Of a stretch of 18,617 nt of DNA, positions 3,354 to 17,252 are shown piece by piece (the first letter of the stretch is position 1; every line of letters starts with the position of its first letter). The position numbers were made by a program, and so were the translations under genes. The notes beneath the pieces were generated by a model. That model searched no databases. It was not told the DNA's origin and worked only from the letters and a program-made list of their open reading frames with translations. The DNA is from Candidatus Nanohaloarchaea archaeon (lineage in GTDB: Archaea; Nanohalarchaeota; Nanosalinia; Nanosalinales; Nanosalinaceae). The stretch lies in contig JBDGRK010000026.1 in the NCBI GenBank assembly GCA_042218075.1, positions 1-18,617 of the forward strand. Reading direction: 5' to 3'.

Positions 3354-3701
3354 CTACTGCCCGAGATCGCTTAACTCTTCCTGTAAATTCTCTAGCTCGG
3401 AGTGGAGCTCATTCACAGAATCATCAAGTTCGTTTCTCTGCGGTTCCTCTCTCTCGTAGGATACCTGCTGCATATCCTCTACTTCCGGCATCTCGACCTC
3501 TACATCCTCCAGCTTTTCGTTAAGCCTGTCAATATTCTCGTAGACGGTCTCGATCGATTTCTCCTTTACATCCCTGACCTGTTCGAGAACTTCCGACGCC
3601 TCTCTAATATTCTCAATAATCTGCCTGATGGCTTCAAGGTCCTCTAACAGAATCCTGTAGCCGTCCACCCTGACGTAGAGTTGGTCTTCTTCCGATGGCA
3701 T
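3354..3701 (-). CDS. Acidic coiled-coil hypothetical protein
   Basis: LYVRVDGY followed by heptad-rich helices; host-like composition; TTTTTAATA about 30 nt upstream. Resembles from memory a small DPANN-type conserved protein (unverified). Confidence 0.8.
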   Translation of the reverse strand: MPSEEDQLYVRVDGYRILLEDLEAIRQIIENIREASEVLEQVRDVKEKSIETVYENIDRLNEKLEDVEVEMPEVEDMQQVSYEREEPQRNELDDSVNELHSELENLQEELSDLGQ

Positions 3702-4430: not shown

Positions 4431-6542
4431 ATGAAGTTCAAACTTCTGCTTCTTGGAACCGCACTTTTAATGACCGCAAGCGTGGGAACCGCACAGTCAG
4501 CTGAAAACACGAACCTGGACACTGTTTTAGTTACCTCCACAGCAAACTACCCTGATACCTTCCTGGCAAACCCGGTATCGGAAAAGCTTGGAGCGCCTAC
4601 AATACTGACCGAGAAGAATTCTCTGCCTAGCGAAGCATCCGAAACCCTTTCAGAACTTGACGTGGAGGAAGCTGTAATAATTGGAGGGCCCAGCGTTGTG
4701 AGCGAGTCAGTGGAGCAGGATATAGATTCAGAGGTAAACACCACTACCAGGCTATGGGGAACAACGCAGGTAGGAACCTCTTCAGAGGTTTCAGGATACT
4801 TCTGGACCGGGAGCAAGGAAGCAACTTTAGTCCAGTATCCGCTTGAATCCATGGATTCCTACAGGGCGCTGGCACGGGCTTCTCACGAATCTGATGAGAA
4901 TCCACTGATTATTTCCAAACCGGGAACCCTTTCAGCTACTGCACTGACGGAAATCGAAAGACTTGGCGCGACCGAAGTAGAGGTATACTCCACGAACTCA
5001 GTAAATGTGACACAGGACCTGAAAGAGATCGGTGTGAAGGAAGTAAATATTGAATCTCTTGATTCCCTGGCGGAAGAAGATCAAAATAATACAAAGGTTT
5101 TCGTGGCGGCACCGGAGTTCAGGCAGGCTTTATCGGCTGCGGCCTCAAGAGGCAGCACTTTTATAGTACAGAGAGAAGATGAAGTGTCAGAGGCAGTCAC
5201 CGCGGCCCGGCAGAGCGAGAATGACAAACTATATGTTACAGGTCAGGCTGATCTGGCCGCCCGGATAGCTGAGAGTCTGAGACAGGAGACTGATAAGCAA
5301 GCTGTGCTGATACCTGGAGAACCTTCAAAGGTATCCGCCAACTTGACGGGGCGAGAGGCCGAAGAATGGTCCAGGGAACAGGATCAAGAGCTTTCAGAGT
5401 GGAGGCAGAACGCAAAAACATCACCCGGACTGAAGAAGGCCGCAAATAAATCTATAGAGAGAGCGAAAAGTTCTGTAGATCAAAACAGCTCGGAAAACGC
5501 CAGGGAACTGCTTCAGGACGCGAGAGATGCTTACAGGGATGGCGACTACTTCGAGGCCAGGAAGCTTGCGACGAGGGCACACTCCACCGCAAGGTCTGAA
5601 GAGTTCAGGTCGATGTCACGAAAAGAAATACGGGAAAAAGTGGAGCAAGACAGGGAAGACTTCAGGCAAGCCTCCGATGAGCTATCGAAACTCGGCCAGG
5701 AACAGGCCGAAGAACTCAGGAACGCTGAATCAATGGAGGAGAGGCTGGAGATCATAAGGGAGTACAGGCAGCAGAGGAGAGAGGTTTTAAAAGAGCTGAA
5801 ACAGAAGGCTAGAGAGAACGGAAGGGACGTAGAGAAGAGACAGAGATCCGGGGGAGAAAGATTCAGGCAGGAATCGGGCGATTCAGAAGATGTAGGCAGT
5901 TCGGAGCTTTCGCTTGAAGTCGAAGGAAACGAAGTGAAAGCAAAAGCTGAGTACACCGCCTTCACAGCCGGATACACGTATGAGACGAGCTTTGATGGGA
6001 ACGGATCGCCGGTCGAATTTGATCTCCGCCTGAACTCTCCGGAAGGACGTGCAGCACAGGTAGTCAGCGATTACAGGCTTGAGAGAAGGGAAAGGCTTGG
6101 TAATGGAAGCTACAACGTAAGCGCGAGATTTGTTCTTGATGGAGAGGAGCTTGAATCTATTCAGAAGCAGGTGAAGGTTCCATCGCAGCAGGAGTTCGAG
6201 AGTGAATCGGAAGCCGCCGAGGAATCCTCCAGTGGAGAAGACAATGTTGTCAGGTACACTGATTCAGGGTTCATGCCACGACAGATCACTATTGAGCAGG
6301 GAGAGACTGTGAAATGGATAGATGAAAGTTCAAGATCGATGTGGGTTGGTTCAGATATGCATCCGACTCACAGAAAGTACGATGGTACATCACTGAGAGA
6401 GCACTGCGAAGGCGGCGAGAGCGATACCTTCGATCAATGCTCGGTAGGAGACGAATACGAGTTCGAGTTTGAGAAGACAGGAGAGTTCGGTTACCACAAC
6501 CACAGGTTCGATTCTCACTCTGGAACCGTGATAGTGGAGTAA
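4431..6542 (+). CDS. Secreted/surface multidomain protein: signal peptide, cell-wall-binding-2-like repeats, charged helical stalk, beta-rich domain, C-terminal cupredoxin-like domain
   Basis: Signal peptide MKFKLLLLGTALL...TAQS. CWB2-like NYPD...APTILT...LP...IIGGPSVVS...RLWG. E/R/K/Q-rich middle. C-terminal GFMPRQITIEQGETVKW...FEFEKTGEFGYHNH...GTVIVE. Confidence 0.82.
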   Translation: MKFKLLLLGTALLMTASVGTAQSAENTNLDTVLVTSTANYPDTFLANPVSEKLGAPTILTEKNSLPSEASETLSELDVEEAVIIGGPSVVSESVEQDIDSEVNTTTRLWGTTQVGTSSEVSGYFWTGSKEATLVQYPLESMDSYRALARASHESDENPLIISKPGTLSATALTEIERLGATEVEVYSTNSVNVTQDLKEIGVKEVNIESLDSLAEEDQNNTKVFVAAPEFRQALSAAASRGSTFIVQREDEVSEAVTAARQSENDKLYVTGQADLAARIAESLRQETDKQAVLIPGEPSKVSANLTGREAEEWSREQDQELSEWRQNAKTSPGLKKAANKSIERAKSSVDQNSSENARELLQDARDAYRDGDYFEARKLATRAHSTARSEEFRSMSRKEIREKVEQDREDFRQASDELSKLGQEQAEELRNAESMEERLEIIREYRQQRREVLKELKQKARENGRDVEKRQRSGGERFRQESGDSEDVGSSELSLEVEGNEVKAKAEYTAFTAGYTYETSFDGNGSPVEFDLRLNSPEGRAAQVVSDYRLERRERLGNGSYNVSARFVLDGEELESIQKQVKVPSQQEFESESEAAEESSSGEDNVVRYTDSGFMPRQITIEQGETVKWIDESSRSMWVGSDMHPTHRKYDGTSLREHCEGGESDTFDQCSVGDEYEFEFEKTGEFGYHNHRFDSHSGTVIVE

Positions 6543-8097: not shown

Positions 8098-11000
8098 ATG
8101 CCAGAGGCTGTCCAGCAGGAAAAAGAGAGGGAAGAGCAGGAACTCGACACCAAGATCAACAAGGTCACCTGCAAGGGTTTCAAGTCTTTCCAGCAGAATA
8201 CCGCGATACCGCTGTTCGAGGGATTGACAGCTATTGTCGGAGAAAACGGTAACGGAAAGTGCGTTACCGGAGATACAGAGGTGCTGACCTCTGATGGAGA
8301 ATACAGACCGATAAGAGAAATCGTAGAGGATTCAATAGAGAGCGATCAGGTAGAGGAGATTGATGATGGGTATCTATCCTATTCTACAGACGTGAAAGTA
8401 GAGAGCCTGAATCCGAGAACTCTGAAATCAGAGGAGAGGGAAGTACTCGCATGTGCCAAGAGGGAGGCTCCAGAAGAATTAAGAGAGATTAAGACGCATT
8501 CAGGCCGAAAGATAAAGGCTACAGACGATCACCCGCTGTTCAAGCTTGTTGATGGCGAAGTAGTTGCAGTTGATTCTTCGGAAGTGGAAGAAGGTGAAAG
8601 AATAGCTGTTCCGAGAAAGCTGAAGGCGGAAAATGGAGGAGAAAAAATATTCACTGAACTCCTGGACATGATTGAGGAAGAAGAAACTCTCTATGTGCCC
8701 TATAGGGAACAGTTCGAGAATCTGATTTACGGTATGAAAGAGGAGAAGGGTGCGACTTGGAAAGAACTTGCCAGTGAAGTAGGTGTCAGTTACAATACTC
8801 TCAGATGTATAAGGGATGAGCAGTCGTGCAGGTTCTCGAGCATTGTCAAGATTCTACGGCATTCGGGAATGAGCGATGAAGAAGTAGCTCAGCAGCTGAA
8901 AACCGTAACATCGAAGACCAGGAGCGAGGAAACCAGGATACCCTGGAAGAATACCCCAGAATTCTCAAGAATGCTGGGTTACCTGCTGGCAGAGGGAAGG
9001 GTAGCTGAGGATTCAGAGCAATTATGGTTTACAAACGGCAACGAGAAAGTTATTCAAGATTATATATCCCTGGTTGATTCCGAATTAGGCGTAGAAGCTG
9101 AAAGAAAGGAATACAATGCAAACTGCTGGGATGTGATTGTTTTCAGAAAGGCCGCAAAGAAGATAATGGAGAAATTTGGACTTAGCGAGGGATCTGGAGC
9201 TAAAGAGATAGCTGAATTTTACAAGAAAAAATCGGGCCAGAAAGAAATAGAGGCTCTACTGGAGGGAATCTTCTCGGGAGATGGAGATGTTTCACACTGT
9301 GCAGCTACTGTAACGACGAAAAGCAGGAAGCTGGCGGAAGATCTCCAGGGTTTGATGCTGAGGATAGGAGTAAACTCCAGGATCAAAGAGAGAGTAAAGA
9401 CAGCCACAAATACAGGAACATCAGGCACATACTATGATCTGAGGGTTTCAGGAAAGGAAGCAGAGAAACTGGCAAACAAATTGAATATACCCATCGAGAG
9501 AAAGCAGAAGGATCTCGAGCAACTCTCCCAGAGAAAGAATAATACCAATATCGACTTGATAGAGGCAAATGGACTGGTCAAGAAAACAGTTGATGATAGC
9601 AATATCAGCCCATATTCCAGATCGCTTAAAGAAGAAGTTCCAAAACTTTCTGCTTACTACAGTGAGAATTCTCTGACAACGAGAGAAGGGCTGAGAGAAG
9701 TTGCAGAGCTATTCTCGGAAGAGGAAACCGAAGAGATAGAACAGATTAGAAAACTCGCAAACTCTGACATCTACTGGGATGAGATAGAAAGTGTAGAAAA
9801 GATAGAAGCTCAAGATGATTGGGTATACGACCTGAATATTGGCGTAGGACACAACTTTGTCGCGAACAATATATTCGTCCACAACAGCAACCTCCTGGAC
9901 GCCATTAGCTTTGTCTTCGGGCGGAGATCAAGCAGTTTGAGAGCCGAGAAGCTCACTCAGCTGATCTTCAACGGTGCAGAGGATCGCAAGGAAGCGGATC
10001 ACGCCAAGGTTGACGTATATCTCGACAACTCTTCAGGGATATTCGACGAGTTCCTGGAAGAGGAAGAAGAGGCAGAAGAAGTGGTTGTATCCAGAAAAGT
10101 AACGAGAGCAGGCAGCTCAATCTACAAGTTCCAGGGCTCGAACTGCAAGAAGGGAAAAATAGATGATATTGCGGAGAAAGCCAACATAGACCCTGATGGA
10201 TTCCACTTCGTGAGGCAGGGAAAGGTGACAGAGATAGTCGAGCAGAGCAACGTCGAGAGGAGAAAGGTAATTGATGAACTTTCAGGAGTCGCGAAGTTCG
10301 ACTCGGAGAAGGAAGAGGCGGAAGAAGAACTTGAGGAGGTCGAGGAAAAGCTCCAGGAGCAGCAGATAAAGCTGAACCAGAAGAAGAGCCACCTTGAAAA
10401 GCTGAAGGAGGAGAAGGAGCTCGCTTTGAAGTACCGGGAGCTGGAGGAGAGGAAAGAGAAGCTGGAGGCCTCCCGGCTCGAGGTTCGGAAGAGAGCGCTC
10501 TCCAACCAGCTCGCCAACATAAATACTGATACAGCGGAGAAGGAGGACAGGATCGAAGAGCTGGAGGAGGAGCTGGAAGAACTCGACGAGGAGATTGAGA
10601 AGAAGCAGGACAGGATTGAGGAGATTGAGGACAAGATGGGTGGAGACTCAGATATTCAGCATCTGGAGACCCGTATAGAGAAGAAGAAGGGGAAGATCGA
10701 GAACAAGCGGGAGAGGATTGAAGAGCTGGAGGAGACGATTGAAGACCTTGAGAAGATGCAGTCGAGGAACAAGACTGGCTCTAAGGCAGTCGACTCCGTT
10801 ATCTCGCTTGGGAAGGATGGCGTACACGGGGCGTTCCAGGACCTGATCTCGGCGGATGAGAGATACGGCGTGGCGATCGAGACAGCGGCTGGAGGCCACA
10901 TGAACGATGTCGTGGTTGAGGATAAGGACGTGGCGATGGAGTGCATAAATTATCTTAAGAGAGAGGGTATCGGAAGAGCGAGGATGCTCCCGCTGGACAA

Positions 11001-12258
11001 GATCAAGGATCGCTCCAAGTCTGCGAAGTCGCAGATGGCGAAGAAAAAGAAGGGAGTAATAGATTACGCGACGGAGCTGGTGAACTACGATGAGCGCTAC
11101 GAGAAAGCTGTAAATCACGTGTTCTCCGACACGCTGATCGCTGAGGACCTGGACTCCGTAAAGAATATCGACGGTGTCCGGGTCGTGACTCTTGATGGTG
11201 ATGTGATGTCGAGAGGAGGATCGATGACCGGAGGAAAGAAGAAGACCAGGAAGAAAAAGAGCAAGAAGTTATCGCAGAACCTGGATCCCGAGAAGAAAAG
11301 AGAGGAGAAAAAGGAGATCGAGGAGGAGATCGAAGACCTCCAAAAGGATATAGCCGAGCTCAAGGAGATGAAGCAGAGGAAAGAGGATGAAGAGGAGAGC
11401 GACGACGAGCTCAGAGAGGAGAAGCAGGAACTGAGAGACCAGCTGAAAGAGATGAGGGAGGAAAGGCAGGAGAAATATTCTGAGAAGCAGAGGCTGGAGA
11501 CAAAGGTCGAGGACTCGGGCTCAAAGAAGGCAAATCTCAAGGCAGAACTTGAAAACGTGAAGGATGATCTCGAGGACTATGATATCGACGAGGATGAGAT
11601 GACGGGACTGGATTCTTCTCCCGAGGACCTGAAGAAAAAGAAGAAGAAAGTGCTGAGGAAGCAGAACTCGATGGGACCGGTCAACATGAGAGCTATAGAA
11701 GAGTACAAGCAGAAGAAGGAAGAGTTCGACGAGTTCAAGCAGAAAGTCTCGGAGGTAAGGCAGGAGAAGCTGGAGATAGAGGACATGATAGAAGAGATCG
11801 ACAGGAAGAAGAGAGAGTGTTTCATGGAGACCCTGGAGCAGATACAGGAGAGCTTCGGAAAGATTTTCGAGCAGCTCTTCGGCGGTGGAAACGCTGAACT
11901 GGTGCTTGAGGAAGACGATATTGAGAAAGGTCTGAAGATCAGGGCCGAACCTCCCGGAAAGGAACCGCACATTATCCAGGCGCTCTCAGGAGGAGAGAAA
12001 ACCCTTACAGCGATCGCATTCGTGTTCGCGATCCTGGAGTACGAGAAGTCGCCTTTCTACATAATGGATGAGATTGATGCGGCGCTGGACAAGAAGAACT
12101 CGAAGAAGCTTTCCGAGTTACTCAAGAATTACGCCAGCGACAACCAGTTCATAGTTATCTCCCACAACGAGATCACCGTGAGACACGCAGAGAGAGCCTA
12201 CGGTGTCTCAATGACGGACGGAGTATCCAAGATGAGAAGCATCGAGCTGGAAGTCTGA
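8098..12258 (+). CDS. smc: Chromosome segregation protein SMC, intein-containing precursor (mature 844 aa)
   Basis: GFKSF, split Walker A GENGNGK/SN, Q-loop FVRQG, hinge GVHG...GIGRARMLPL...VTLDGD...GSMTGG, MGPVN, signature LSGGEK, Walker B YIMDEIDAALD, QFIVISH. Confidence 0.97.
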   Translation: MPEAVQQEKEREEQELDTKINKVTCKGFKSFQQNTAIPLFEGLTAIVGENGNGKCVTGDTEVLTSDGEYRPIREIVEDSIESDQVEEIDDGYLSYSTDVKVESLNPRTLKSEEREVLACAKREAPEELREIKTHSGRKIKATDDHPLFKLVDGEVVAVDSSEVEEGERIAVPRKLKAENGGEKIFTELLDMIEEEETLYVPYREQFENLIYGMKEEKGATWKELASEVGVSYNTLRCIRDEQSCRFSSIVKILRHSGMSDEEVAQQLKTVTSKTRSEETRIPWKNTPEFSRMLGYLLAEGRVAEDSEQLWFTNGNEKVIQDYISLVDSELGVEAERKEYNANCWDVIVFRKAAKKIMEKFGLSEGSGAKEIAEFYKKKSGQKEIEALLEGIFSGDGDVSHCAATVTTKSRKLAEDLQGLMLRIGVNSRIKERVKTATNTGTSGTYYDLRVSGKEAEKLANKLNIPIERKQKDLEQLSQRKNNTNIDLIEANGLVKKTVDDSNISPYSRSLKEEVPKLSAYYSENSLTTREGLREVAELFSEEETEEIEQIRKLANSDIYWDEIESVEKIEAQDDWVYDLNIGVGHNFVANNIFVHNSNLLDAISFVFGRRSSSLRAEKLTQLIFNGAEDRKEADHAKVDVYLDNSSGIFDEFLEEEEEAEEVVVSRKVTRAGSSIYKFQGSNCKKGKIDDIAEKANIDPDGFHFVRQGKVTEIVEQSNVERRKVIDELSGVAKFDSEKEEAEEELEEVEEKLQEQQIKLNQKKSHLEKLKEEKELALKYRELEERKEKLEASRLEVRKRALSNQLANINTDTAEKEDRIEELEEELEELDEEIEKKQDRIEEIEDKMGGDSDIQHLETRIEKKKGKIENKRERIEELEETIEDLEKMQSRNKTGSKAVDSVISLGKDGVHGAFQDLISADERYGVAIETAAGGHMNDVVVEDKDVAMECINYLKREGIGRARMLPLDKIKDRSKSAKSQMAKKKKGVIDYATELVNYDERYEKAVNHVFSDTLIAEDLDSVKNIDGVRVVTLDGDVMSRGGSMTGGKKKTRKKKSKKLSQNLDPEKKREEKKEIEEEIEDLQKDIAELKEMKQRKEDEEESDDELREEKQELRDQLKEMREERQEKYSEKQRLETKVEDSGSKKANLKAELENVKDDLEDYDIDEDEMTGLDSSPEDLKKKKKKVLRKQNSMGPVNMRAIEEYKQKKEEFDEFKQKVSEVRQEKLEIEDMIEEIDRKKRECFMETLEQIQESFGKIFEQLFGGGNAELVLEEDDIEKGLKIRAEPPGKEPHIIQALSGGEKTLTAIAFVFAILEYEKSPFYIMDEIDAALDKKNSKKLSELLKNYASDNQFIVISHNEITVRHAERAYGVSMTDGVSKMRSIELEV
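8260..9885 (+). mobile_element. Intein (542 aa) with LAGLIDADG homing endonuclease and an HTH insertion
   Basis: Starts CVTGD. Block B ATDDHP. LAGLIDADG motifs MLGYLLAEG (8971) and LLEGIFSGDG (9256). HTH TWKELASEVGVSYNTL (8755). Ends VYDL...HNFVANNIFVHN followed by Ser+1. Removal restores GNGKSN. Confidence 0.96.
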
Positions 12259-12303
12259 TAATTCAGGCAAGAATTTAAAGCTGAGCGACTATCAACAATT
12301 GAT

Positions 12304-12490
12304 ATGCCTGCCAGTATTGATTATACCGAGAGTGAAGATCACGTGGAGATGTCGAAGGAGGAGTTTGAAAGGGTCAGAGCGACTATAGAAACTCTGGAAG
12401 ATCAGGAGGTTCTGGATCAGTTGAAGAAAAAGTCAGGAAGACAAGGAGAAAGGAAGAGTTAAGCCATGGAGCGAAGTTAGTCTAAATTAA
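12304..12490 (+). pseudogene. Frameshifted orphan antitoxin-like gene (Phd/YefM- or RelB-type C-terminal pattern)
   Basis: As written it is a 52-aa ORF (12304-12462). Deleting one A from the A5 run (12427-12431) gives ...EEFERVRATIETLEDQEVLDQLKKSQEDKEKGRVKPWSEVSLN*, a typical antitoxin tail. TTTAAA about 26 nt upstream. Confidence 0.62.
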
Positions 12491-12582
12491 AGTTTTTCTA
12501 AAGAATTTCTTTCAACCACCATAGTAGTTAAAAACCGGGAGAAGGAAATTTTCAGTGGGCAGAGGGGAATTGATGATGGAAA

Positions 12583-13296
12583 ATGCAAGATTACGAGATA
12601 TCTGAACTCGCGGAGCAGCCGTGGAAAGAGACTCTTGACGTTCTGACCGCGGACATGGATCCCCGGAGTATTGATATTGCTGTTCTCGCGGATCGCTACA
12701 GAAATTATATAGAAGAGCTGGAGAGCTTTAATCTCGAGGTTCCTGCCAGAGCGGTAAGGCTTCTTTCAGCACTCCTGAAGTTCAAGACCCTGGCGATAGC
12801 GGGTGAAGAAGTCAGGGAAGAAGAGGAGCAGGAGAATCCGATGGACTTCGAGGAGGAAGAGCTGGTTGAGGAGGAAGAACTGCCGGAGCTTGAGACTGGT
12901 CCGGAGCTGGAGATGCCGGTCAAGCCTAAGCCGAAAAGACGTATGAGCCTTGACGAGCTGAAAGACGCGCTAGGAGACGCTATGGAGGTCAAGGAGAGGA
13001 GGGAGGAGCGGCAGGAGATGAGGCAGGAAATAGACGATCACCTGGAAGTGGATGAAAAGTCGCTTAACGAGAAGATAAATTCGCTTTTTTCCAGACTGAC
13101 TAATCTTGTGGGAAGCAGCTCGGATAAAGTTGAATTCGACCAGCTAGTCGAGAACCAGGAGAGCGAAGAGCGGATCGAAAAATTCCTTCACGTCCTGCAC
13201 CTGGAGACCGACCAGAAAGTGGAGTGCATCCAGGACGAGTGGCTTGGAGATCTCGAAGTCAGGCCCACAGAGGAACATGAAAAGGTCGCGAATTAG
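12583..13296 (+). CDS. scpA: Segregation and condensation protein A (kleisin)
   Basis: MDPRSIDIAVLADRY, LLSALLKFKT, RRMSLDELKDAL and C-terminal winged helix FLHVLHL...VECIQDEWLGDL. Located downstream of smc. Confidence 0.92.
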   Translation: MQDYEISELAEQPWKETLDVLTADMDPRSIDIAVLADRYRNYIEELESFNLEVPARAVRLLSALLKFKTLAIAGEEVREEEEQENPMDFEEEELVEEEELPELETGPELEMPVKPKPKRRMSLDELKDALGDAMEVKERREERQEMRQEIDDHLEVDEKSLNEKINSLFSRLTNLVGSSSDKVEFDQLVENQESEERIEKFLHVLHLETDQKVECIQDEWLGDLEVRPTEEHEKVAN

Positions 13297-13337
13297 AGAG
13301 TTAACCCTTTTTCAACTATAGTCTCCAAGACACCTGC

Positions 13338-13871
13338 ATGGACGAGAAAAAGTCAAGGCTGGAGGCAGCTCTATACCTGGCGGAGGAAGCGGTGGATAAA
13401 GAGGAGATCGCCGATATTCTGGATCTGGGATCTATGGGTTACGTCGATATGCTAATAGAGGAGTTCGAGGAACACCTGGAGGAGGAACACCGGGGACTGG
13501 AGCTTGTGGAGACACCTGAGGGATACGAGCTGAAGGTGAAGAAAGACCACCTTGAACATGTTTCCCAACTGGCACCCCACCAGGATCTCAATAAAGGACA
13601 GTTGAGAACATTAAGCCTGGTCGTCTACAACTCCCCCGTGGAACAGGCGGACATAGTAGAGGTGAGAGGAAACAGGGCTTACCAGCACATCAAGGAGCTT
13701 GTGAACCGCGGATTCGTGTCGAAGGAGAAGGACGGCAGGACCGCGATCTTAGATGTTACAGATCACTTCCTGGATTATTTCGATATTGAGTCGGTGGATG
13801 AGTTCAAGAGGCAGTTCGAGAACGAGCAAAAAGGTAGGGAGGGGGAGCAGGAAGGTATCGAGACATTTTAA
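13338..13871 (+). CDS. scpB: Segregation and condensation protein B (kite)
   Basis: LEAALY, GLELVETPEGYEL, LRTLSLVVYNSPVEQADIVEVRG, HIKELVNRGFV and VTDHFLDYF. Confidence 0.94.
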   Translation: MDEKKSRLEAALYLAEEAVDKEEIADILDLGSMGYVDMLIEEFEEHLEEEHRGLELVETPEGYELKVKKDHLEHVSQLAPHQDLNKGQLRTLSLVVYNSPVEQADIVEVRGNRAYQHIKELVNRGFVSKEKDGRTAILDVTDHFLDYFDIESVDEFKRQFENEQKGREGEQEGIETF

Positions 13872-13874
13872 CCT

Positions 13875-14234
13875 TCAGAAATCAGCGATCTCCGCCTGTC
13901 CTTCATCGCTCTCTTCTCTTTTACCTAATCTCTCGTATACCGGTTCTAGGGCTCTCCATACATTCCTTAATAAGAAGTCCGAATCATCCGGTACATCGAC
14001 TTCCGCATTATTTTCAACATATTCAACCAGTTCTCTATAGCTATCTCCCTCTTCAAGATTTCTTGCTTCATCCTTTTGCAATCCGAACTTTACCTCTTCC
14101 AATCTTTTTCTAGCCTTGTTCAAGTCGCTCTCCTCTTCAAGATTTCTTGTATCAGTTTCTACTAGGCTATTCACGTAATCAATCACTACTTCACAATATT
14201 TCTCAGGTAGAACAAATTCTGAACCTTGACCCAT
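13875..14234 (-). CDS. Hypothetical protein, 119 aa (probable true start 14234)
   Basis: Acidic composition begins at MGQGSEF. The longer ORF-track version runs antisense into rqcH. Contains an internal 18-nt direct repeat. Confidence 0.65.
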   Translation of the reverse strand: MGQGSEFVLPEKYCEVVIDYVNSLVETDTRNLEEESDLNKARKRLEEVKFGLQKDEARNLEEGDSYRELVEYVENNAEVDVPDDSDFLLRNVWRALEPVYERLGKREESDEGQAEIADF

Positions 14235-14294
14235 AATTGGCAGATATTTGTAAAATTTTATAGGTATTTGTAGCTGAGGTTCGAAGATCAGTTC

Positions 14295-16199
14295 ATGGAG
14301 ATAACCAGTCTCGACCTCTCGATCCTGATGGAAGAGTTTGAGGAGCTTGAGGAAGGTCACGTGCAGAAGGTCTACCAGAGGGATGATGAGCTGACTGTAG
14401 AGGTTTACGTTGGAGGAGAGGGCAAAAAAAGGCTGCTTATCGGGACCAGCTATGCCTGCCTCACGAAGTACAAGAGAGACAACCCGACCAGGCCTCCGGG
14501 CTTCTGCATGGAGCTGAGGAAGCACCTGGGTAAGATTGACTCCGTGGAGCAGAGAGGATTCGACCGCATCCTCGAGCTGAAGAGCGGAGACGTTAAGCTT
14601 GTCTGCGAGATATTCGGCAAGGGCAACTTTATTCTCGTGAAAGATGGAAAGATTATCGGTGCGTTAAGGCAGGAGGAGTGGGCTGATAGAGATATACTGG
14701 TTGGAGAAGATTACGAGTACCCGGAACCCGCTCCCGATCCCAGAGAAATGGAGGAGTACATCCAAAACCTGGAAGAAGGAGAAGTGGTGAGAAGGATCGC
14801 CTCGGATCTCAGTCTTGGTGGTACCTACGCAGAGGAGATCTGCTCCAGAGCAGGAATTGAGAAGCAGAAAGAGGTCGGAGAGCTTTCAGAAAGCGATAGA
14901 GAGGAGCTCAACTTGGAGATACAGAATATAATCGAGGGGGAGAGGGAAGCGGTGCTCTACTATGATGAGGACGGCTTCCCGGACAGAGCCTCTCCTTTCA
15001 AACTTGAGACCTACTCGGGCCAGAATAGCGAAAGTTTCGAATCTTTCTCGGAGGCGCTGGACGAGTACTACTACACAAGGGAACAAAAAGAAGAGGAGAG
15101 GAAGAAGCTGGAAGCATACAGGGAGAAGAAGGAAGGTCTTGAGGCGCAGAAACAACAGCAGGAGAGGAAGATTAAAGGACTCAGGAAGTCAGCGGAGCAG
15201 AAGAGAAGTGACGCGGAGGCTATATATGAGAACTACCAGCTGCTGGATGAGGTGAAGTCAAAGGTTGAAGAGGCGATCAAGGAGCTAGGATGGGACGAGA
15301 CACGTGAAAAGCTTGAAGAAGCGGAAAATGAGCTTTCGGAGAGAGTGAACTCGATAAACGAGCAGGATGATTTCATTTCCGTTGATGTTGGGGATCGCAA
15401 CCTGAAGATCTATCTTTTCCAGGACCTAGAGGCCACAGCATCCGAATTCTACGACAAGGCGAAGGAGTCCGAGGCCAAAATTGATAGTGCAGAACAGGCG
15501 CTTGAGGAGACGGAGAAGCAGCTTGAGGAACTTGGCGAACAAGATGTAGAGGTCGAGGAAGTTATGGATGACAAGTCTAAGAAGAGGGAGAAGAAATGGT
15601 TCGAGAAGTACAGATGGTTTTTCTCCTCGGAAGGGTTTCTCGTGATCGCGGGCAGAGACGTCCAGACCAACGAAATGCTGGTGAAAAAGCACATGGAGAA
15701 GAATGATATCTATCTCCACGCTGACTTTGACGGCGCTCCCTCTGTCGTTGTCAAGGAAGGTCAGGACGCGGGAGAGGAAACTCTTAGAGAAGCTGCGAAA
15801 GCTGCTGTCACGTTTTCAAAGACATGGAAGGCTGGCATAGGTGCGGACGATGTCTACTGCGTGGATCCTGACCAGGTGACGATGGACCCGGAGTCGGGAG
15901 AGTACAGGGAGAAAGGTTCGTTCATCATAAGAGGTGATCGGGAATACATGAGAAATGTATCGGTTGGGGCAGCGATAGGACCATACGAGATAGAGGACGG
16001 AGTATACGTGCCGATGTGTTGTCCTCTGGACGCGATCGAGGGCAACTGCCCGGAAATGATAGAGCTTGAACCCGGCAACACCAAGAAGTCGGAGATAGCG
16101 AAGAAGATACGCTCAAGGTTTAAAGATTCGGGATACGACCTTGATCTAGACTACATCATAAGAGCGATGCCTCCAGGAGAATCCGAAATCAGGGAATAA
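14295..16199 (+). CDS. rqcH: Ribosome quality-control protein Rqc2/RqcH (NFACT family)
   Basis: ITSLDL, FCMELRKHL, QRGFDRIL, EIFGKGNFIL, LGGTYAEE, WFEKYRWFFSSEGFLVIAGRD, LHADFDGAP, GSFIIRG and terminal PPG. Confidence 0.95.
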   Translation: MEITSLDLSILMEEFEELEEGHVQKVYQRDDELTVEVYVGGEGKKRLLIGTSYACLTKYKRDNPTRPPGFCMELRKHLGKIDSVEQRGFDRILELKSGDVKLVCEIFGKGNFILVKDGKIIGALRQEEWADRDILVGEDYEYPEPAPDPREMEEYIQNLEEGEVVRRIASDLSLGGTYAEEICSRAGIEKQKEVGELSESDREELNLEIQNIIEGEREAVLYYDEDGFPDRASPFKLETYSGQNSESFESFSEALDEYYYTREQKEEERKKLEAYREKKEGLEAQKQQQERKIKGLRKSAEQKRSDAEAIYENYQLLDEVKSKVEEAIKELGWDETREKLEEAENELSERVNSINEQDDFISVDVGDRNLKIYLFQDLEATASEFYDKAKESEAKIDSAEQALEETEKQLEELGEQDVEVEEVMDDKSKKREKKWFEKYRWFFSSEGFLVIAGRDVQTNEMLVKKHMEKNDIYLHADFDGAPSVVVKEGQDAGEETLREAAKAAVTFSKTWKAGIGADDVYCVDPDQVTMDPESGEYREKGSFIIRGDREYMRNVSVGAAIGPYEIEDGVYVPMCCPLDAIEGNCPEMIELEPGNTKKSEIAKKIRSRFKDSGYDLDLDYIIRAMPPGESEIRE

Positions 16200-16223
16200 A
16201 GTCAGTTATTTTCATAAAGCTGA

Positions 16224-17142
16224 ATTAGAGAAAGTTATACTGGTGTTAAATTTATTGTAAAAAATAAGCGAACGTGGGCTCTTTTTATTGTTAGTCTGGG
16301 AGTTTTCTGACCGCTGTCAAACCTACTTCCTGTTTTCCAGCAGGATGGCAGCCTCCTAAGTCTAACACTTACCGTGACTAGCATATTATTTGGGCTTCTA
16401 TCAGGCTTCTTCATCTCGGAACTCTGGAAAAAATACAGCACAATAAGAAAACTCAACTCAAAATTCGTCTCAAATCTTGGCACTATAATTTCAAACTTTG
16501 AAAGATTGTCCGGAAACGAAGAGCTGAAGGAAGAATTTAAGCAGGAAGTATACAATTACCTGATCGTTTACACACTTTTACCATGGAACCGAATGGATAT
16601 AGGAGACAAGTACTTTGATAGAATAACATCAAAAATAGATGATGTTAAAGTAGAAGAAGACCAAGACATGCCGGTTTACAAAATTCTACTATCCAGTTCG
16701 AGCAACACATCAACGATCAGAAAAGAACTTTCAATAGTTGGGAAGGAAAGATTATTTTTTCCTTGAATGGATGGTATTGATATCACTTTCATGCATAATA
16801 ATTGTTACAGCAATGTTCTTGAGAGATGGAAGCCTCTTCTTCAACTTTATATCAACCGTTCTAGCATCAGTTGTTATCCTGACACTTGCAATACTTGATG
16901 ATCTAAATAATTTGAGATGGAACGCTAGAGAAGTATCTTTTTCGCCGATACAGCCTATATATGAATTAATTGATCGAAAAGAATTTTACGAAAAAAGGTA
17001 CGTTGAGGCTGGAATGGCTGTACCTAATTCTGACGATTACCTGACTGAGGAAGACCTTGAAGGCGAACAAAGGGAAATATATGAGAAGTTCAGGGATGAA
17101 GGATGGCTTGCCTCTTCTTCCCTGCTGGGATATGAAGTTTGA
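16224..17142 (+). pseudogene. Disrupted multi-pass membrane protein (DUF4239/bestrophin-like); 5' end uncertain
   Basis: In-frame TGA at 16308-16310 interrupts a hydrophobic helix (WALFIVSLGVF*PLSNLLP). One extra T in the T6 run (16755-16760) splits ...GKERLFF from LEWMVLISLS.... Lower GC than its neighbours. Family call from topology and ILFGLLSGFFISELW / ILDDLNN motifs. Confidence 0.65.
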
Positions 17143-17176: not shown

Positions 17177-17252
17177 GGCGGGGTAGTGTAGCGGACTATC
17201 ATCGTACCCCGGGGCGGTACGGACCCGAGTTCAAATCTCGGCCCTGCCACCA
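17177..17252 (+). tRNA. tRNA-Pro(GGG), CCA encoded
   Basis: GGCGGGG/CCCTGCC acceptor, GTACC-CCGGGGC-GGTAC anticodon arm, CCGAG-TTCAAAT-CTCGG T arm, terminal ACCA. Confidence 0.9.

Follow-up and report, generated by a model that had tools for sequence, protein, structure and literature searches.

The window analysed here is the entire 18.6-kb contig JBDGRK010000026.1 (18,617 nucleotides; assembly GCA_042218075.1) of a Candidatus Nanohaloarchaea archaeon, whose genome amounts to 1.10 Mb in 40 contigs and is, by estimate, about 92% complete. [quoted passage not shown] The locus is very probably a chromosomal smc-scpA-scpB operon encoding a complete, short-armed prokaryotic condensin. Its features are as follows; the elements of the arm are predictions, placed by mapping an AlphaFold monomer model of P0007, an intein-less orthologue of 80% identity, onto the coordinates of the window.

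8098 to 12258, forward strand: smc precursor open reading frame (ORF), 1386 amino acids (aa) including the intein, stop codon at 12256-12258 (ORF list, Pfam)
8098 to 8259, forward strand: N-extein, 54 aa, comprising the first strand of the head and Walker A as far as its lysine (AAA_23 match at residues 22-54)
8260 to 9885, forward strand: intein, 542 aa (residues 55-596), with a LAGLIDADG homing-endonuclease domain (Pfam, terminal residues)
9886 to 10248, forward strand: remainder of the ATPase head's N-terminal half, with the Q-loop (motif strings, Pfam, model mapping)
10249 to 10761, forward strand: N strand of the arm, predicted helices of 12, 113 and 36 residues, 8-residue break at 10630-10653 (P0007 model)
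10762 to 11286, forward strand: hinge domain with linkers, SMC_hinge core at 10816-11157 (Pfam, model)
11287 to 11880, forward strand: C strand of the arm, predicted helices of 33 and 57 residues, 6-residue break at 11386-11403, then joint and neck (P0007 model)
Within the C strand, forward: putative joint, made up of a loop (11575-11619), a 17-residue helix (11620-11670) and the GPVN loop (11671-11691) (P0007 model)
11692 to 11880, forward strand: putative neck helix, 63 residues (P0007 model; joint and neck lengths as in the canonical control)
11881 to 12255, forward strand: C-terminal half of the ATPase head, with signature motif, Walker B, D-loop and H-loop (motif strings, Pfam, structure matches)
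12583 to 13296, forward strand: scpA, kleisin, 237 aa (PF02616, 36.4 bits against a cut-off of 24.6, E 7e-9; residues 129-226 aligned)
13338 to 13871, forward strand: scpB, kite, 177 aa (PF04079, 132.9 bits against 27.4, E 1e-38; TIGR00281, 123.4 against 89.2)

The smc frame is interrupted between the Walker A lysine and the serine that follows it. The interrupting stretch, 8260-9885, has the make-up of an intein: a HINT-type splicing domain (PF14890, Intein_splicing, 85.6 bits), a homing endonuclease with two LAGLIDADG stretches (PF14528, LAGLIDADG_3, 74.9 bits) and, as read from the translation, cysteine as its first residue, His-Asn at its end and serine as the +1 nucleophile; splicing is predicted. 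Joined, the exteins (54 and 790 aa) would give an Smc of 844 aa. Every coordinate and length that the first-pass annotation had given for the 1386-aa precursor, its intein and the spliced protein with a full hinge and all head motifs could be reproduced.

The intein occupies the identical Walker A site in 14 of 14 intein-bearing Smc rows, short-armed and canonical (the window plus P0117, P0129, P0130, P0132, P0139, P0140, P0162, P0179, P0239, P0257, P0258, P0270 and P0271). Its occurrence is sporadic, with intein-sized frames in 3 of the 61 hinge rows of the phylum and in 8 of 97 within a Woesearchaeota-type phylum, and it looks like a mobile allele common to the smc genes of DPANN archaea. 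Among the contigs of an independent study, none joins across the intein as an intein-less allele would. Run X3 returned two joints in smc (10577 to 10658 and 10925 to 11026), each on a single low-depth contig with sides of fewer than 36 letters at 90% likeness, and we take both to derive from related organisms.

Walker A, Q-loop, signature motif, Walker B/D-loop and H-loop are all found in the head, Walker A being complete only without the intein. The SMC_N profile of Pfam scores 116.7 bits (cut-off 40) and the SMC_hinge profile (PF06470) 102.5 bits (cut-off 22.5), the latter mid-chain at precursor residues 907-1020, and the hinge matches the hinge structures 4rsj, 3nwc and 1gxl. The top matches among solved structures are the Smc proteins of Pyrococcus and bacteria (E 5e-89), and P0007 passes the equivalog cut-off of TIGR02168 (604.5 against 567.35 bits). 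No second hinge-bearing protein was found in the source genome, of which about 92% is covered. On sequence grounds, the protein is classed as Smc with a non-canonical arm length, arm length being a typical and not a defining trait of the family.

Arm segments were measured with four small profiles, placed at the end of the N-terminal head, at the hinge start, at the hinge end and at the GPVN block. By this measure the segments of the window are 177 (N) and 146 (C) residues long, with a mean of 161.5; the 179 and 145 aa derived earlier from anchors at 10282, 10819 and 11671 were also recovered. Across 116 measurable nanohaloarchaeal homologues, with identities reaching down to about 48%, the N segment spans 177-181 aa in 112 and the C segment 144-152 aa in 114. 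With the same profiles, canonical relatives give about 350-365 (around 361) and about 305-317 (around 312) residues, with a mean near 336. The shortfall is therefore 184 residues on the N strand and 166 on the C strand, a mean of 175 or 1.9 periods of 91 aa, so that the previous estimate of some 170-180 aa missing per strand, close to two periods, stands as an approximation.

Arm means were also compared over 150 cluster representatives, 141 of them measurable; these are the best by likeness to the mini query, and the resulting length histogram is hence no unbiased census. Three separate groups emerge: 28 rows have means of 140-179, 5 rows of 220-259 and 108 rows of 290-349, and the gaps between them are empty. 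Compared with distant families of the phylum, the two arm strands retain identities of 0.46 and 0.45 against 0.49 for the hinge, and the sequences thus indicate that the arms are about as conserved as the hinge within the phylum. Because the length is held within a few residues at around 50% identity, and because the arms are conserved like the hinge, the present arm length appears to be under selection, whatever its origin.

The anatomy of the arm was compared between the P0007 model and an identically modelled canonical control, P0147 (1178 aa, mean predicted local distance difference test score (pLDDT) 80.8). In P0147 the helices measure 12, 209, 34 and 88 (+11) residues on the N strand and 113, 153, 18 and 63 on the C strand, with a mid-arm break at 376-385 and 791-793. 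The neck (63 residues) and the joint helix (17-18) are equal in the two models. By contrast, the segment between joint and break is 96 residues shorter in the mini model on both strands (113 vs 209; 57 vs 153) and the segment between break and hinge is 80-99 residues shorter. The breaks of the mini arm (10630-10653 and 11386-11403) would then be counterparts of the canonical mid-arm break. Helical residues per strand number 161 (N) and 170 (C) in the mini model, against 343-354 and 347 in the control; at the usual coiled-coil rise per residue, this corresponds to arms of about 24-25 nm and 50-51 nm, respectively. The shortening of the two strands claimed earlier is hence seen, matched on both, in the models when like is compared with like. 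The 145-aa segment was also correct as a number, but it is not the length of the C arm, since GPVN marks the joint and not the head, and the 63-residue helix follows it.

Solved fragments cover most of the orthologue: the Pyrococcus head fragment 5xei aligns to P0007 residues 29-261 and 588-851 and the hinge fragment 4rsj to residues 300-558, leaving only about 30-40 residues per strand uncovered. When 14 mini rows were aligned with 14 canonical ones by E-INS-i, the blocks present only in the canonical rows came to lie at distances from the joint that roughly mirror each other; alignment of coiled coils is unreliable, and the missing part of the arm was therefore located by the two models and not by this alignment.

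The short form is the rule in the phylum. With a few fragments and intein-bearing forms as exceptions, the top 120 homologues of the C-extein almost all measure 830-876 aa, and the organism names attached to them are all nanohaloarchaeal; cultivated carriers include Candidatus Nanohalobium constans (848 aa) and Nanohalococcus occultus (845 aa). A survey of 70 genomes of the phylum, making up one class and one order, yielded a hinge match in 60 genomes (61 rows). The frames of these rows measure 833-899 aa in 45 cases, 935-968 aa in two and 1391-1393 aa, the size expected with an intein, in three, the remaining 11 being shorter; a canonical frame of 1100-1250 aa occurs in none of the 61. In 8 single-contig genomes of the phylum, the frames run from 848 to 935 aa. 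Contigs of the independent study cover 8099-13999 with no differences, spanning both intein junctions and both arms, so that the check for misassembly, made there and in the relatives from the phylum, came out clean. Chance is not at issue, since the architecture recurs in all 116 measured nanohaloarchaeal homologues. The view that this is a functional-looking natural mini-Smc, as opposed to a product of decay, is thus upheld by its phylum-wide occurrence, its tightly held arm length and the hinge-like conservation of its arms.

The partner genes are likewise conserved. ScpA homologues range from 225 to 263 aa, with an N-terminal region conserved across 32 homologues and conserved motifs in the acidic middle region; the scpA product of the window did not reach the cut-offs of the bacterial NCBIfam equivalogs. 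ScpB is present in 60 of the 70 genomes of the phylum, its homologues being 72-89% identical. Hinge and ScpB matches occur together in 56 genomes, and in 51 of these ScpB is encoded 2-6.5 kb downstream of the hinge, on its contig and strand (one of the 51, G030, counted solely through a fragment at a contig end). The structure prediction of the complex suggested by the first-pass annotation was made for ScpA with two copies of ScpB and gave weak support, at a score of 0.52 against 0.00 for the best of three controls, with contact agreement between runs of at least 83% and a partner pLDDT of at least 56. Of 80 solved complexes, 58 reach the mark applied, as do 2 of 110 mismatches; at scores of 0.60 or less, only 7 of the 80 and both mismatches do so. 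As solved ScpA-ScpB complexes exist, the pass may reflect likeness only.

Natural variation in arm length has been described before. Bürmann et al. 2017 (PMC5344682) report natural Smc arm modes of 238, 341 and 515 aa, with 163 and 423 aa as 'possibly' present, and a period of 91 aa; the wild-type arm of Bacillus subtilis is 344 aa, and functional engineered arms fall at 253-267, 321-344, 330-373 and 407-435 aa. The nanohaloarchaeal form very likely belongs to the same length class as the 163-aa mode, the two pairs of values being 163 and 341 aa there and 161.5 and about 336 aa here. That mode is, however, only 'possibly' present in the main text of the paper, which attaches neither organism names nor anatomy to it, and the domain boundaries used are not identical. 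As far as that text goes, the half-arm class had therefore been glimpsed, though not characterised, and is not wholly unseen. No description of a short Smc in Nanohaloarchaeota, Aenigmatarchaeota or DPANN archaea was found in the literature searched, subscription journals and supplements lying outside the search.

The engineered B. subtilis Mini-Smc (PMC5344682) also has its arms cut with head and hinge kept, and its function depends on arm length in steps of about 91 aa; as described in the main text, however, its arms of 253-267 aa lie one period below wild type, whereas the natural form lies about two periods below, spread over two segments. With the Smc-ScpAB of B. subtilis and Pyrococcus, the mini form shares the head motifs of an ATP-binding cassette (ABC) protein, an SMC hinge, a neck helix and a joint with its GPVN loop, as well as ScpA kleisin and ScpB kite genes beside smc. 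It differs from them in an arm of about 161/170 residues per strand in place of about 345, in a length of 844 aa in place of about 1150-1200 and in a precursor with a Walker A intein. Smc proteins of uncultured Bacilli/Tenericutes, among the matches listed (L022-L026), are also of the hinge type, colinear with the mini form and 26-29% identical to it, but they are bacterial, their matches extend over 2895-2928 nucleotides (about 965-976 aa) and their arms are some 70 residues longer per strand. They constitute an intermediate arm class; in the tree described below, the five 'mid' rows with arm means of 220-259 are scattered among the long forms. The locus encodes Smc-ScpAB, whose geometry here is unusual and conserved, and not a novel type of system.

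How such a protein would work can be proposed by homology. The intein breaks the Walker A loop of the 1386-aa precursor, and the ATPase would therefore form only after splicing, to judge from the insertion site. The spliced 844-aa Smc would combine a canonical head and hinge with an antiparallel arm of about 160-170 helical residues per strand, in which neck, joint and one near-hinge break are kept and, on both strands, each of the two straight segments falls short by about one superhelical period. Because both strands are shortened alike in both segments, the register of the arm would be kept. In the manner of B. subtilis Smc-ScpAB, a pair of Smc proteins would dimerise via their hinges, with ScpA connecting one head, at its neck, to the other, at its cap, and with a dimer of ScpB seated on the middle part of ScpA. 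Binding and hydrolysis of ATP would open and close a smaller arm compartment, thereby capturing and moving DNA; under a segment-capture scheme, a smaller loop would be taken per cycle.

Beyond the phylum, the query found 26,662 relatives in a library of clusters at 50% identity. Next after the nanohaloarchaeal clusters come colinear proteins of 799-873 aa with 33-43% identity, five of them with inteins. The named sources outside the phylum are Aenigmatarchaeota (three clusters), Naiadarchaeales (one) and one metagenome-assembled genome labelled Heimdallarchaeota; few clusters carry names, and those of the Aenigmatarchaeota-type group come from cluster look-ups alone. A genome scan with a general head pattern returned mostly bacterial and canonical archaeal Smc and no Aenigmatarchaeota locus among the matches listed. 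The Candidatus Heimdallarchaeota record belongs to the cluster of P0126, an 842-aa mini-Smc that lies in the tree within the clade holding the nanohaloarchaeal rows, and its label may be a binning or naming error.

Trees were built from head and hinge blocks only. One clade with a support of 97 holds 34 of the 36 mini rows; four long-branch rows that are not mini also fall within it, at supports of 11-14. The sample used for IQ-TREE and the approximately unbiased (AU) test comprised all 36 mini rows, the 5 mid rows and 27 of the 106 long rows (9 chosen, 18 random). Under a site-heterogeneous model, the mini label requires three changes, only one of which is forced by well-supported branches. 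A constraint placing all 36 mini rows in one clade was not rejected by the AU test (p 0.683), the constrained tree having the advantage by 9.24 log-likelihood units. The sequence data would thus fit a single origin of the short form without proving one.

A small cell and genome had been offered as the setting that the short form suits, and this idea is weakened by the wider survey of DPANN archaea. That survey extended to a Woesearchaeota-type phylum of 101 genomes, with sampled sizes of 0.5-2.1 Mb, of which 97 have a hinge. In 83 of the 97 the frame is 1089-1270 aa, in 8 it is 1653-1706 aa, again an intein size, and in 6 it is 724-887 aa, some of these six lying near contig ends; the Smc frame of a Micrarchaeota genome is 1129 aa. 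The short form is general to the nanohaloarchaeal phylum and found in Aenigmatarchaeota relatives, while most Woesearchaeota-type genomes and the Micrarchaeota genome have frames of canonical length. Since equally small Woesearchaeota-type genomes keep a canonical Smc, a small genome does not predict the short form. Nor does a salty cytoplasm, since the haloarchaeal records among the matches listed (L034, L040 and L042) have Smc matches of canonical length (3498-3537 nucleotides). Descent, and not genome size or salt, predicts the short form.

Several observations weigh against the reading of the locus as a condensin with an evenly halved arm of single origin. The anchor-based shortfall is unequal between the strands (184 vs 166). 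The arm geometry comes from a monomer model of an orthologue, with a mean pLDDT of 71.6 and a predicted template modelling score (pTM) of 0.36, and the pairing of the strands is inferred. P0007 does not reach the cut-off of the archaeal-type equivalog TIGR02169 (688.8 against 729.4 bits), a miss that is to be expected when half of the arm columns are absent. Eleven frames of the phylum are shorter than 800 aa, several of them at contig ends. The mini label needs four changes on the FastTree topology and three on the quick IQ-TREE one, with P0148 and P0207 falling elsewhere. The mechanism and function proposed for mini Smc-ScpAB derive from homology, and its own ScpA-ScpB prediction is only weakly supportive. 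A look for RNA runs that contain the window's operon region returned none. According to the accessible text of Jeon et al. 2020, three archaeal ScpA-ScpB pairs did not bind, and no scpB was present in 285 Halobacteria. Functional shortened B. subtilis arms are reported in the main text of PMC5344682 only down to 253-267 aa, and arms of about 165 aa are without experimental precedent there.

The alternative that survives best holds that genome reduction, or a single ancient deletion, left the arm short as a neutral by-product, without adaptive meaning for ring or step size, and that it is kept only as a workable length. The trait tracks phylogeny and not genome size, being phylum-wide and shared with Aenigmatarchaeota-labelled relatives, a single origin is not rejected, and canonical Smc persists both in the haloarchaeal records listed and in the great majority of the small Woesearchaeota-type genomes (83/97), all of which makes a neutral origin a serious, if somewhat doubtful, possibility. 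The near-constancy of arm length across homologues sharing about half of their residues and the conservation of the arms on a par with the hinge speak against it. It concerns, however, why the arm is short and not what it is, and so overlaps with the preferred explanation: the short arm is an inherited, phylum-wide trait common to Aenigmatarchaeota-type relatives that most likely arose once, on a permitted length.

It is very unlikely that the protein is instead a specialised SMC-like ATPase (a Rad50/SbcC-like repair protein, an archaea-specific SMC-related protein or a defence protein) and no condensin at all. Rad50 and other SMC-like proteins do commonly have short arms, and P0007 misses the TIGR02169 cut-off. 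Rad50 of the Mre11-Rad50 complex does share the ABC head and the folded-back coiled coil, but it dimerises through a zinc hook, has no hinge and lacks kleisin or kite partners, whereas the protein of the window has a true SMC hinge and no zinc-hook match. The genome also has a separate Rad50, its only other SMC_N protein, which has 754 aa and, at residues 367-414, a zinc hook (contig C40, 663-2927). The Rad50 models of the NCBIfam set have 872-895 positions, and archaeal Rad50 is usually nearer 880 aa; the arms of the genome's own Rad50 may be short too. The model for archaea-specific SMC-related proteins, NF045487, scores 114.9 against a cut-off of 300 and the Rad50 models at most 68 against cut-offs of at least 700, while TIGR02168 is passed, the neighbours are scpA, scpB and housekeeping genes, and no other hinge protein to serve as condensin was found in the 92%-complete genome. 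Finally, a pseudogene in decay or a misassembly in which coiled-coil repeats have collapsed, conceivable in principle for coiled-coil DNA of repetitive composition in a 40-contig draft, is excluded by the open 1386-codon frame with its intact catalytic motifs, by the identical sequence from the independent study and by the phylum-wide, near-constant arm length, seen in the single-contig genomes and in hundreds of metagenomic homologues.

A more specific form of the preferred account is possible, though slightly short of probable: the half-length arm goes back to a single origin, in which two segments underwent matched losses of about one superhelical period each, and marks a clade of Nanohaloarchaeota and Aenigmatarchaeota-type DPANN archaea. 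If true, mini Smc would be the smallest natural hinge-type Smc-kleisin-kite motor, and the SMC cycle would need neither 50-nm arms nor the mid-arm region, which would amount to a natural test of the periodic arm-length rule. The placement of Nanohaloarchaeota, with DPANN archaea or beside Halobacteria, is disputed, and the short arm would then be a rare structural change bearing on it; the short form, being shared, may also be of use as a marker for the phylogeny of DPANN archaea.

The arms of SMC proteins are believed to pass on force and to determine how large the DNA-holding compartment is. The rule on their length has so far had as its sole basis, in the main text of PMC5344682, engineered B. 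subtilis proteins and a length histogram; nature offers an experiment on it in the form of a whole phylum whose arms are two periods shorter and whose neck, joint and hinge are intact. The segment-capture model expects both step size and the tension at stalling to scale with the loop that the complex is able to hold (PMC6649773, accessible text), and the step size predicted for a short-armed Smc is open to test. The complex is also compact, a convenience for structural work, and cultivated nanohaloarchaea carry the same form.

Around the operon lie housekeeping genes, encoding ribosomal protein S3Ae, dCTP deaminase, a class II aminoacyl-tRNA synthetase and an NFACT protein. The spacer between smc and scpA (12259-12582, 324 nucleotides) contains an ORF for an acidic 52-aa product (12304-12462), and the distance from hinge to scpB is about 170-200 nucleotides shorter in most relatives than in the window. 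Pfam searches with the 52-aa ORF and three other ORFs of the window gave no credible family match, and an Rfam scan of the whole window matched no family. Downstream of scpB, a 216-aa ORF without a family match (13875-14525, reverse strand) overlaps the start of the NFACT gene (14295-16199, forward strand) by about 230 nucleotides; probably one of the two starts, or the reverse-strand ORF itself, is not real. The G+C content drops to 0.38 at 16001-17000, against about 0.48, just upstream of tRNA-Pro(GGG) at 17177-17252, the sole tRNA in the window. Upstream of the operon, positions 4431-6542 encode a 703-aa protein with only a weak N-terminal match to the cell-wall-binding family CWB2, which may, from its sequence, be a candidate surface protein of a symbiont.

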